A program made the position numbers and the translations under genes. A DNA stretch of 34,519 bases from NCBI GenBank assembly GCA_003614675.1, contig ML002389.1, forward strand, positions 1 to 34,519, in the 5' to 3' direction. Below, in pieces: positions 19,170 to 24,803 of this stretch; positions within the stretch are counted from its first letter, which is position 1; each line of letters opens with the position of its first letter. Below the pieces are notes generated by a model. The model did no database searches and had not been told where the DNA came from. It saw only the letters and a program-made list of their open reading frames with translations. The stretch comes from Dimargaris cristalligena (lineage: Eukaryota).

Positions 19170-19892
19170 TTAATTATCTAAAGCAACATCAATTAAAGTA
19201 TTTTCTAATATAGATATTATAAAAATTAATGGAAAATATAAAAAATAAAATAAAGTAGATATTTGACCTAATAAAATAAAAGGTTCTTCAACATGTTGGC
19301 TACCTAATCACAATAATAATAAAAAATTAAATACAAATAATCAAAATATTAATTTTGATATTGGTTTAAATATATTTCCTCTTATTCTAGAATAATCTAC
19401 ATATGGTAATACTAATAAAATTAATAATGAACCAAACATTGCTAATACTCCACCTAATTTACTAGGTATTGATCTTAATATAGCATAAAATGGTAAAAGA
19501 TATCATTCTGGTACTATTGAAGTTGGAGTTACCATAGGATTAGCTGGAATATAATTATCAGAATGACCCATAGAATTAGGATAAAAAAATACAACCAATG
19601 ATAAAATAAATAAAAAAGCAAATACACCAGCTAAATCTTTAAAAGTAAAATAAGGATGAAAAGGTATTTTATCTCCCTTTGAAGAAATACCTAATGGATT
19701 ATTAGACCCATCTGTATGTAAAGCAATTAAATGACCTATTACTAAAGCAGCTAAAATAAATGGTAATAAATAATGTAAACTAAAGAAACGATTTAAAGTA
19801 GGATTATCAACGCTAAATCCACCTCAAGCTAATTCAACTAAATGAGTTCCTATATATGGAATAGCTGATAATAAATTAGTTATTACAGTAGC
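19170..19892 (-). CDS. cob: Apocytochrome b, exon 3
   Basis: [13 protein letters not shown]...[10 protein letters not shown]...[18 protein letters not shown]...[11 protein letters not shown]; preceded by G at 19893. Confidence 0.95.
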
Positions 19893-20000
19893 CAATCGAC
19901 TATTATTTTTAAATTAGTCAGTAACAAAATAGATTCCAATATATTTATATTGACATTATTTGATTAGAAATTATATAATATATATATATAAATTTATATA
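19893..20000 (-). other. Putative 3' fragment of split cob intron 2 (group I)
   Basis: ACTGACTA...AATAGTCG-ATTG| : P7-like GACTA/TAGTC pairing and a terminal G. Confidence 0.5.
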
Positions 20001-20002
20001 AT

Positions 20003-20172
20003 TATAATTATAAATAAGCTGATTAATGTATATATTTATCTTGTATCATTTATATTTAGGTCAAATTTTATAAAAAAAAGTATTAAAGTACTAGGATATC
20101 CCTTTATTTTTACCATAATTTATATTATCTGATAATTATTCAGTTATATTCAGACTTTCCTTTATAATTAAA
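20003..20172 (-). ncRNA. rnpB: Mitochondrial RNase P RNA (reduced, ~170 nt)
   Basis: CR-I GGAAAGTCTGA (20150-20160) pairs with CR-V ACATTAATCAGCTTA (P4); P1 TAATTATAAA/TTTATAATTA; lies directly downstream of a tRNA. Confidence 0.8.
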
Positions 20173-20195
20173 TAAGTTATGTATATAACTAATTA

Positions 20196-20269
20196 TACTC
20201 ATTAAAGGGATTGAACCTTTAATCTACGATTTAGAAGATCGTGGCTTTATCCAATTAAGCTAAATGAGT
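20196..20269 (-). tRNA. trnR: tRNA-Arg(UCU)
   Basis: Cloverleaf ACTCATT/AATGAGT; anticodon arm ACGAT-CT[TCT]AA-ATCGT; T arm AAAGG-TTCAATC-CCTTT. Confidence 0.93.
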
Positions 20270-23300: not shown

Positions 23301-23866
23301 AAATTTGGTTTTTTGTTTATATTCAAAAATCTTTTAAATATTGTTTGAGTAATTGAGTAACTAGAATTGTTATCAAGTATCATAGATGCAATTATAAAAT
23401 AATTGTTATTTATTCTTAACCATTTAGGGTATAATAAAATGCCCTCTCAACCTATAAAAATTATTAATAAATTATTACCAGTTATTAATATAGACATAAA
23501 GAAAGTAAATAATGATAAATAAGTAAAAAATCTTTGAATATGAGGATCGTTACTCATATAATCTATACTAAATATTTGTACACAACTTGATACTATTAAT
23601 ATAGCTAATCACATTGATACAGTTAAACTATCTATTTTAAATTCATATCTTACATATAATGATCCTGCGTCAATTCAATCTGTTATATCTATAATTAATG
23701 GTGAATCACATATTACAACTTCATAATAAGCTAATATACCTAATATACTTGTAGTTATTATACATATATTACTTATTATATAACTCCCTTTTACTCCAAT
23801 TTTTCTACCAAATAATCCAGTTATTATACCACTTAATAATGGTAAAAATATTATTATTATATACAT
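20319..23866 (-). CDS. nad5: NADH dehydrogenase subunit 5 (exons 23866-23441, 22341-22048, 21742-21428, 21248-20319)
   Basis: [75 protein letters not shown]; ~654 aa. Confidence 0.93.
21249..21427 (-). mobile_element. nad5 intron 3, small group I intron (179 nt)
   Basis: P1 AGCTGGT/GCTAGCT with U-G pair; TTGCTGAAA, AATCAGCAGG, AAGAGACTA, AATATAGTCC; ends in G. Confidence 0.88.
21743..22047 (-). mobile_element. nad5 intron 2, group I (305 nt)
   Basis: At the common MEG|PTP site; ATTAGCAGG, TCAGAGATTA; ends in G. Confidence 0.85.
22342..23440 (-). mobile_element. nad5 intron 1 (after CDS nt 426), group ID
   Basis: ID-type core ATCGTCGG...GATCGCGACAGACTGG...TTAATGTACAGTCG at about 22485-22560; ends in G. 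Confidence 0.9.
22667..23440 (-). CDS. Intron-encoded double-motif LAGLIDADG protein, degenerate, in frame with nad5 exon 1
   Basis: Motif remnants [12 protein letters not shown] and [10 protein letters not shown]; typical blocks [42 protein letters not shown]. Confidence 0.82.
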
Positions 23867-24179
23867 TTTTTATTTTTTTATTGTGTCATTTTTTCCAGCC
23901 ACCTTCCGTATCTGGCATACAAAGTATGTTATACCTTATTTTATATTCTACTTTTAATTTTTTTTATTTTAATTTTTTTTTTACCACAAAACCAATATAA
24001 TTATTACCCATTTCGAAGATCTATTGATCTTGTTAACTGTATTATACCTGAACTAATCTTTATTTGTAGTTTTATATATAATATCATTATTATCCAAGCA
24101 GATATGGAATGAATCCTATTGGATAATATAAAATTAAATACTATCCGTACATATCTATTCCGTTGTTACATTTATTTTT

Positions 24180-24536
24180 TTAGTTCATTGTACTATTTCT
24201 CTTGGCTAAAACTTTGCTAAAAATTTTTAAAAAATTAAATTTATAAGTACTACAAATATTATTAATTTTTATAGATTTCAGATCAAAATTTTTAAGTTTA
24301 ATAGTCATATTAATAACTGTATTTTTATTATGCATTATTTTTTCTATACTTATTCATTCTTTTCAATATATATTTTGAATTTTTTGAATGATTTTTTTAT
24401 TCATATTAATAGAAGTTAAAATATTTTTATTTTCATATTTATGAAGAATTTGTTTTCAATTTTCAGTATTTCTTATTTTTGAACTTAATGGATGTCTAAT
24501 ATTCACATTTTTATATTTTTTTAATTATTTATACAT
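24180..24536 (-). pseudogene. rps3: 5' half of rps3, truncated
   Basis: ...NIRHPLSSKIRNTENW...KSIKINNICSTYKFNFLKI is identical and in frame with window bases 1-55, then diverges and stops 13 codons later. Start ATG ~24536 or GTG 24506. Confidence 0.75.
24222..24276. repeat. Exact 55-bp inverted copy of window bases 1-55
   Basis: The reverse complement of 24222-24276 equals ATCTATAAAA...TTAAAAATT; mismatch begins at base 56. Confidence 0.92.
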
Positions 24537-24575
24537 TTCCTAAAATATTATGTACTGACCTATCCTAAGGTACTA

Positions 24576-24803
24576 ACCTCATAAACTCATTTGACCTCAT
24601 ACTAAGACATAACCTAAAAACGCTGTACCCATCATTAAAATAAATATTATTACACCTATAGTTCATAATAATACTCTAGGTTTTCTATAAGAACCATAGT
24701 ATAAAGCTTTACCAATATGTATATAAACAAAAATAAAAAAGAAAGAAGCTACATTAGCATGAGTATATCTTATTAATCAACCATTATTAACATCTCTCAT
24801 GAT
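24576..24803 (-). CDS. cob: Apocytochrome b, exon 2
   Basis: [23 protein letters not shown]...[18 protein letters not shown]; 228 nt, matching the common cob-201 and cob-429 intron sites. Confidence 0.95.

Follow-up and report, generated by a model that had tools for sequence, protein, structure and literature searches.

A break in the mitochondrial cob gene of Dimargaris cristalligena at a group I intron site, and its possible mending at the RNA level

Group I introns that splice in trans are described in cox1 of Gigaspora, Trichoplax, Isoetes, Selaginella and Helicosporidium, in rns of Gigaspora margarita, and in rnl of Prasinoderma and Haplopteris (PMC3873408, PMC10027690). In the portions of these two accounts covered here, cox1, rns and rnl are the only reported hosts, and a complete catalytic core is always reassembled out of two halves. 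For a fungal intron of this kind, that of Gigaspora rosea cox1, the involvement of a helper RNA has once been proposed (PMC3873408, citing Nadimi et al. 2012, in the part covered), and large inverted repeats with flip-flop isomers are reported from the mitochondrial genomes of fungi such as Candida and Malassezia (PMC10113387, likewise in part). Here we describe a mitochondrial cob gene, encoding cytochrome b, from a 34,519-nt stretch of DNA of Dimargaris cristalligena (contig ML002389.1 of assembly GCA_003614675.1; the whole stretch is hereafter called the window). Its exon 2 and exon 3 are separated by 4,683 nt on the minus strand, an interval occupied by other genes (Table 1). A full-text literature search (cob, trans-splicing, group I intron) found, among the titles listed, no description of a trans-spliced or split fungal cob.

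Exon 2 ends in ...QMSLWG, encoded by ...CAA ATG AGT TTA TGA GGT with its last base at 24576, and is directly followed by TAG at 24575-24573. Exon 3 begins with GCT ACT GTA (ATV...) at 19892, just after an in-frame TTG at 19895-19893. On the Pfam profile the two parts abut at 127|128, with nothing missing and nothing doubled, and the break falls within the fully conserved stretch ...SLWG|ATVITN... without extra residues. Such exact abutment in a conserved stretch is what one sees at an intron site, and not what a protein fission to which the sequence has adapted would show. The gene presumably starts at TTG 25292-25290, the sole start-capable codon after an in-frame TAA, exon 1 being devoid of ATG. 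The cob of this DNA is a genuinely fragmented gene, made of one module with exons 1-2 and another with exon 3. A preliminary description, made from the letters of the window alone, had placed the borders at 24576 and 19892 and the intervening genes all on the same strand, and both the sequence and the Pfam matches bear this out.

That the break exists in the DNA is indicated by independent assemblies. Logan contigs (k=31) of four sequencing runs were aligned to 18500-26000; two of these runs, X1 and X5, are of one organism sequenced in two studies, and possibly include the source strain of the window. In both of them exon 3 has a single upstream context (the rnpB-like stretch, trnR and nad5 exons 4-2) and exon 2 a single downstream context (the 5' part of rps3), the contigs through the cob exons and their flanks are unbranched, and no contig joins 24576 to 19892. 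Among the matches listed for X1, 8 of 10 contigs with at least 80% likeness out of 78,212 scanned, there is no second cob-like piece. Given these single contexts and unbranched contigs, the break is real DNA and not a mis-join, and the mis-assembly against which the preliminary description had cautioned can be set aside for 24576/19892. The two remaining runs (X6 and X7, organism B) gave short pieces at 2-4x depth, with no differences from the window among the matches listed.

The contiguity displayed in the contig is, all the same, only one of two joints at 24221/24222. Positions 1-55 of the window are the 100% identical reverse complement of 24222-24276, and the similarity stops exactly there; past this overlap the window start encodes the VAR1/Ribosomal_S3_C half of rps3, whose frame is that of the open reading frame (ORF) at 24524-24222. 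The complete rps3 is thus 24524-24222 plus 56-508, and the copy on the nad5 side is a truncated one, which leaves the rps3 frame from 24221 and reaches a stop after 14 codons. Being exactly 55 nt long and placed at a contig end, the overlap was probably left at a branch by a k=55 de Bruijn assembler. The Logan contigs covering 16957-22515 (depth 193.6 in X1 and 853.1 in X5), 22490-24251 (79 and 922.8) and the region from 24222 onward (210 in X1, 2,868 nt; 4,090.4 in X5, 2,279 nt) include overlaps of 30 nt, and since this equals k-1 the graph has one branch at 24221/24222 and another near 22486-22519. The latter branch coincides with a group I core motif common to other contigs, among them a 942-nt X1 contig (7 differences in 60 nt, 88%) and several X5 contigs. 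An inverted repeat or alternative joint had been suspected beforehand, and the 55-nt inverted overlap together with the branch at 24221/24222 substantiates it.

By k-mer depth, about 38% (X1) or 22% (X5) of the exon 1-2 copies run on into the nad5 side; the remainder presumably enter the 3' half of rps3, which lies on the opposite strand relative to exon 3. The ratio of repeat-side to unique-side depth is 1.08 in X1 and 4.8 in X5, whereas a simple two-copy inverted repeat predicts 2; the ratios do not match such a repeat, and the arrangement may be an inverted repeat, flip-flop isomers or sub-genomic molecules. The stoichiometry of the mitochondrial DNA parts thus differs from sample to sample (4,090 on the atp6/cob exon 1-2 side against 853-923 on the nad5/cob exon 3 side in X5; 210 against 194, and 79 for 22490-24251, in X1).

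Comparison with metagenomic cob loci throws light on the position of the break. We considered 78 of 80 loci, omitting L029 and L068, in which the match does not start at residue 1. In 76 of the 78 the sequence runs from ...WG (in one case ...WA) uninterrupted into ATVIT, and in the other two, L001 and L007, an intron of 1,178 and 1,082 nt respectively stands at exactly G143|A144; each contains a LAGLIDADG ORF that continues the frame of exon 2, and has its core within the last 300-400 nt. Because these cis introns occupy the same position, it is a genuine group I intron site; judged by sequence, the break in the window is exactly at this site (nt 429), as the earlier proposal of a group I intron at the break had implied.

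The 5' stub left after exon 2 contains a putative guide of 10 nt at 24575-24566, which pairs through 4 nt with the beginning of exon 3 and through 6 nt with the close of exon 2, in the layout P10|P1. While a 6-bp P1 turns up in 24.6% of 20,000 random flanks of window composition, and one with two G-C pairs in 3.1%, a P1 with at least two G-C pairs plus an adjacent 4-bp P10 turns up in 0.03%. In alignment A2 the guide region lines up with its counterparts in L001, L007 and intron 1 of nad5 in the window, and the adjacent P10|P1 arrangement for the intron's own exons is also found in L001 and nad5 intron 1. Furthermore, where the exons of L001 and of the window differ in two places (TGG/TGA, GCA/GCT), the guides differ to match.

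The borders of the interval are group I-like as well, exon 2 ending in U and the interval in G. Five nucleotides from the end of the 3' stub lies a hairpin, GACUA-12 nt-UAGUC at 19919-19898, resembling P7 of the group I introns of the window. This GACUA...UAGUC pattern has 3 matches in the window against 0.32 expected, a number reached by 2 of 100 shuffles; one of the other two is the P7 of cob intron 1, and the second is a comparable mini-hairpin that follows atp9 exon 1. The last bases of the stub, CGATTG, compare with CGATTTG at the end of the L007 intron, and alignment with related intron ends showed likeness in the last 6-7 nt only, to L007. Apart from the P7-like hairpin, the 51-nt and ~100-nt flanks have neither room nor motif for P3-P6 and P8, and a scan of the window for R/S-type boxes recovered full sets in true cis introns only. 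On this showing, the two stubs cannot fold into a group I ribozyme.

The preliminary description had proposed that cob is joined by group I trans-splicing or by removal of a giant gene-containing intron. Of this, the site, the U/G borders and the 10-nt guide hold up, while the lack of P3-P6 and P8 and a splice-site U facing A do not fit. It had also pointed to a 7-bp complement between the halves; this is present at 24559-24553/19923-19917 (8 bp with a G.U pair, strand 24560-24553), yet a Watson-Crick helix of at least 7 bp arises in 388 of 500 dinucleotide shuffles of the two flanks, and stub-stub pairing as a tether was rejected as chance-level. A group II reading was likewise rejected: group II introns have borders of the consensus GUGYG...AY, which those of the interval do not follow, and the sole domain V match of the window is in rns.

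Within the window, the only core of the family found in cis at cob G143 is that of nad5 intron 1, which is located between the cob modules. This intron matches the cob intron of L001 at 66% across 743 nt (E 2e-48) and the core of L007 at 76% across 112 nt, and its ORF is 35% identical to that of L007. The interval is in fact colinear with a cob G143 intron, with guide, ORF, core and terminal G in that order and the nad5 exons and other genes intercalated. Belonging to the same family as the cis cob-429 introns, and lying between the modules in the displayed isomer, nad5 intron 1 is a candidate for a core acting from outside the stubs. At its own splice site (23441/23440) a C faces a guide A, possibly as a C.A wobble, so that the cob stub (24576/24575) and nad5 intron 1 break the U.G rule alike on the guide side. 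The helper of Gigaspora rosea cox1 is also said to be a nad5 intron.

We infer from these observations, with a probability of about 0.4, that the cob parts are joined at the RNA level by group I chemistry, using a core from outside the stubs. In this scheme the guide after exon 2 would align both exon ends, the P7-like hairpin and terminal G would be provided in front of exon 3, and the missing catalytic core would be supplied by another RNA, for which nad5 intron 1 is the obvious candidate. The joined exon 2|exon 3 RNA is predicted to read ...TTATGAGGT|GCTACTGTA... at the junction. A variant, which we hold to be distinctly improbable, has a single shared core splice two exon pairs, nad5 as the inner and cob as the outer pair, in a nested group I system; each of the two guides, that of cob and that of nad5, fits the exon junction of its own gene, and the core might act in cis on a long precursor or in trans after processing.

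Several observations weigh against joining by an outside core. When each stub was scanned for duplexes with either strand of the window, no specific pairing with the core of nad5 intron 1 emerged, the best windows being elsewhere and AT-rich helices dominating. The cofold gain of the two stubs is -11.4 kcal/mol against -7.9 +/- 3.0 for shuffles, 28 of 200 of which reach it (z-score of the total cofold energy, -1.97). The splice-site U of exon 2 faces guide A at 24571 as a Watson-Crick pair, whereas L001, L007, cob intron 1 and nad5 intron 3 have a U.G wobble there. About half of the 5' stub looks like an ordinary upstream-type motif of rps3, ATATT(0-2 nt)TAGG at 24548-24533. A stop directly after exon 2 and a start-capable TTG before exon 3 would suit separate translation of the halves. 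Finally, we know of no proven natural precedent for a core acting on foreign exons in vivo.

The main rival, which we consider somewhat less likely than joining, is that the halves are never joined: two polypeptides would assemble in complex III, and the stubs would be decaying intron relics. Exons 1-2 would then encode a 143-residue N-terminal part (helices A-C) ending at TAG after G143, and exon 3 would be translated from the adjacent TTG. The own stop comes 0 codons after G143, compared with 5, 9, 13 and no stop in the four other 5' splice contexts of the window, although it is partly dictated by the guide, because P10 pairs with GCUA. In the short frame before exon 3 no codon but the TTG at 19895-19893, which adjoins A144, could serve as a start, and cob exon 1 seemingly also begins at TTG in a similar ATTGGC context; however, NTG before ATVIT is common in ordinary intron-bearing cob (L-ATVIT in P0017 and P0092, M-ATVIT in P0032 and P0052), and the TTG before exon 3 consequently carries little weight. 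Loss of the core and of the wobble pair would be expected without selection for splicing, and the k-mer depths of the two modules are 4.8-fold apart in X5. Against this stand the 10-nt guide, still perfectly complementary to both exon ends, and the place of the cut, amid the most conserved stretch of the Qo-site region (WG|ATVITN), without added residues or local divergence. The splits of cytochrome b6/subunit IV are located after helix D, and the literature search brought up no comparable split cob.

A self-sufficient group I intron, be it a 4.68-kb gene-bearing one in cis or two core-rebuilding halves in trans after tRNA/rnpB processing, would account for the known intron site, the U/G borders and the guide, but is in our view very unlikely. 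Same-strand genes inside an intron have a parallel in hexacoral ND5-717 (PMC6545197, in the part covered), and the break just after the guide, where the ORF begins in L001 and L007, agrees with a rule placing breakpoints in ORF loops (PMC3873408, likewise). The halves of 51 and ~100 nt nevertheless lack P3-P6 and P8, R/S cores being confined to the true cis introns; their mutual pairing is at chance level; and only the above-mentioned minority of exon 1-2 copies (~38% in X1, ~22% in X5) is linked to the nad5 side. Of the explanations we can put a name to, the one with the slimmest chance is that of artefact or redundancy, in which a functional contiguous cob resides elsewhere, on another contig or in a minor DNA form, and the pieces here are partial duplicates. 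The window lacks cox1, nad3, nad4 and nad4L and is thus an incomplete mitochondrial genome, further genes are partly duplicated in it (cox3 at the 5' end, rps3 in its 5' part), and its start is a graph branch. Yet both cob parts are intact and conserved, the X1 matches listed (8 of 10; 78,212 contigs scanned) include no second cob-like piece, and a near-identical copy with other flanks would have split the X1 and X5 contigs, which are unbranched. The remaining weight goes to mechanisms that we cannot name.

Table 1. Features of the fragmented cob gene, its surroundings and the window (window coordinates)
Feature	Coordinates	Strand	Remarks
cob exon 1	25089..25292	-	Cytochrome_B profile 2-52; ends ...GAA CAT
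cob intron 1	24804..25088	-	compact cis group I intron; canonical U.G P1, R/S boxes; internal comparison
cob exon 2	24576..24803	-	Cytochrome_B profile 50-127; ends ...SLWG (G143)
5' stub	24525..24575	-	51 nt up to the rps3 frame; TAG 24575-24573, guide 24575-24566
truncated rps3 5' part	24180..24524	-	24524-24222 common to complete rps3
branch point	24222..24276	.	X1 and X5 contigs end at 24251 and begin at 24222; 30-nt overlap (k-1)
spacer upstream of nad5	23867..24179	-	no gene or RNA family found
nad5 exon 1	23441..23866	-	Pfam; ends ...GWEG
nad5 intron 1	22342..23440	-	group I; in-frame LAGLIDADG_2 ORF (to 22667); core ~22600-22480
nad5 exons 2-4	22341-22048, 21742-21428, 21248-20319	-	Pfam
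nad5 introns 2 and 3	22047-21743, 21427-21249	-	group I
trnR(UCU)	20195..20270	-	ARAGORN; Rfam 67 bits
rnpB-like stretch	~19995..20190	-	limits approximate; no Rfam match
3' stub	19893..19994	-	~100 nt, AT-rich; terminal G 19893; last bases TTG in frame with exon 3
cob exon 3	19170..19892	-	Cytochrome_B profile 128-188 and Cytochrom_B_C; ATVITNLL... to stop
alternative continuation	1..508	+	55-nt inverted overlap, then rps3 3' half (VAR1/Ribosomal_S3_C)
genes on minus strand		-	rnl, rns, atp9, trnT, atp8, atp6, cob, nad5, trnR, nad6, nad1, cox3, cox2
genes on plus strand		+	rps3 3' half, nad2, trnR(CCU)

With respect to the genes inside the interval, the nad5 exons match Proton_antipo_N, Proton_antipo_M (13-111, 113-220, 222-283) and NADH5_C in Pfam. 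The gene list of the preliminary description stands for the rps3 5' part, nad5 with three introns and trnR(UCU), whereas its rnpB is without confirmation from Rfam, where no RNase P match was obtained, including at E<=10 on 19870-20200. By eye, the rnpB-like stretch carries a GGAAAGUC-type motif and an ACA...CAGCUUA-type motif; these motifs, at ~20161-20151 and ~20046-20014, we take to be CR-I- and CR-V-like.

The window is AT-rich mitochondrial DNA (G+C ~16-35% per kb) and is read with TGA as Trp. Cob exon 3 shows 69-73% identity to fungal cob, the best named relatives being Agaricomycetes (69-71%), and rps3 is of the VAR1 type (Pfam), for which reasons we term the window fungal-type. Besides cox1, nad3, nad4 and nad4L most tRNAs were not found within it, and it is hence not a whole mitochondrial genome. 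Rfam searches, run at the gathering threshold for the whole window and at E<=10 for 18900-25700, 19870-20200 and 23860-24600, gave no group I and no RNase P match; as they also missed the evident cis introns (cob intron 1, nad5 introns 2 and 3), this blank is weak and was rejected as evidence.

The motif ATATT..TAGG recurs on the minus strand 20-50 nt upstream of atp9 exon 1 (25608-25592), cob exon 1 (25327-25311), rps3 (24548-24533) and nad6 (19147-19131), and is absent upstream of cob exon 3, nad5, nad1, cox3 and atp6; it is possibly a promoter or processing signal. In the tighter form TATTCATAGGT it was rejected as a general gene-start signal: no more than two copies are exact, and when 2 mismatches are allowed the 39 occurrences do not exceed chance (34.8 expected).

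A further unusual arrangement concerns atp9, which is permuted: exon 2 (...LLYAA, 27052-26893) lies upstream of exon 1 (MLASAKLLSAGLATISISGAG, 25559-25497) on the same minus strand, with trnT, atp8 and atp6 between them. After exon 1 come a U.G guide of canonical type and an R/S mini-hairpin (25437-25415) with no room for P8; before exon 2, and directly after rns, lie ~113 nt whose last base is G. A MAFFT alignment of four small introns for placing this mini-core was too poor for use. By its layout the permuted atp9 would need trans- or back-splicing, comparable to the permuted ND5-717, unless a nuclear atp9 exists. The 204-nt spacer between atp9 exon 1 and cob exon 1 (25496-25293, minus strand) resembles a decayed group I intron and ends in ...CAATTG directly before the first cob codons, an ATTGGC context that recurs before cob exon 3.

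Elsewhere in the window, 141 nt are directly duplicated at 16118-16258 and 16862-17002 with 96% identity; they comprise the region upstream of cox3 and its first 25 codons. Fused to this duplicate is an ORF of 224 codons (16943-16269), whose middle is of low complexity and rich in Lys, Asp and Ser, and which is a chimeric ORF of the recombination type. The nad2 ORF (483-3395, plus strand) has 970 codons, its Proton_antipo_M match stopping at residue 420 and the last ~450 residues being without a Pfam match. In some 7.4 kb (~3900-11300) neither an ORF of at least 100 codons under code 4 nor a match to any RNA family is present; scattered over this region, and occurring also within introns, are short hairpin repeats of palindromic sequence, which make up families D2 and D3 (e.g. 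CCAATCGTAGATTGG). The rns intron (27869-28875, minus strand) has a group II domain V match (67 bits) together with a LAGLIDADG_1 ORF (27973-28875), a combination of group II intron and LAGLIDADG. The group II intron of cox2 contains an ORF for a maturase (GIIM) that is fused in frame (14557-11366).

In the literature covered, as far as its accounts go, cob is not named among the genes known to be fragmented where a group I intron can reside. Two unusual answers offer themselves: a group I core acts on foreign exons here, or this mitochondrial cytochrome b consists of two polypeptides cut within the Qo-site region; each outcome, if true, would be new for fungi. An intron at the G143 site is known to constrain the fungicide-resistance change G143A, by which processing at this junction gains practical interest. 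For annotators, the locus is a warning that the contiguity of a contig may represent only one of two DNA joints.

Set beside bipartite group I introns that are spliced in trans, the cob gene is similarly broken where relatives carry a cis group I intron, with a guide beside the 5' exon and a terminal G beside the 3' exon, in recombination-prone DNA. The breakpoint also lies in the ORF region of the cis relatives: the ORF of L001 and L007 starts at the 5' splice site and continues past the guide, and in the cob interval intron sequence stops shortly after the guide. Unlike the cob stubs, which are without P3-P6 and P8, the bipartite introns rebuild a full core from their halves; cob is not among the hosts named in the covered parts of PMC3873408 and PMC10027690, and the splice-site pair is here U-A. 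The proposal made here shares with the helper model of Gigaspora rosea cox1, to the extent that model is set out in the part of its account covered, the recourse to a third RNA that completes or guides a fungal trans-spliced intron, but cob would need a whole core to be supplied and not part of one. Likewise, hexacoral and corallimorpharian ND5-717 has same-strand mitochondrial genes between the intron ends and unconventional processing by back-splicing, whereas it keeps a full core, with the genes in P8, and no core flanks the cob insert (PMC6545197, in the part covered). As in the inverted-repeat mitogenomes of other fungi, the border of an inverted duplicate cuts rps3, giving one whole and one truncated copy, and there are two alternative joints; unlike in those genomes, only 55 nt of the duplicate are seen at the contig end and the depth ratios are 1.08 (X1) and 4.8 (X5) rather than 2. 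The closest likeness in sequence is to the cis cob introns of L001 and L007, with the same insertion site, a homologous guide region (A2) and an L007-like 3' end. Those introns measure 1,178 and 1,082 nt, contain ORF and core and have a U.G pair, in contrast to the 4,683 nt of other genes here. The LAGLIDADG ORF and core of their family are nonetheless present in the window, inside nad5 intron 1.

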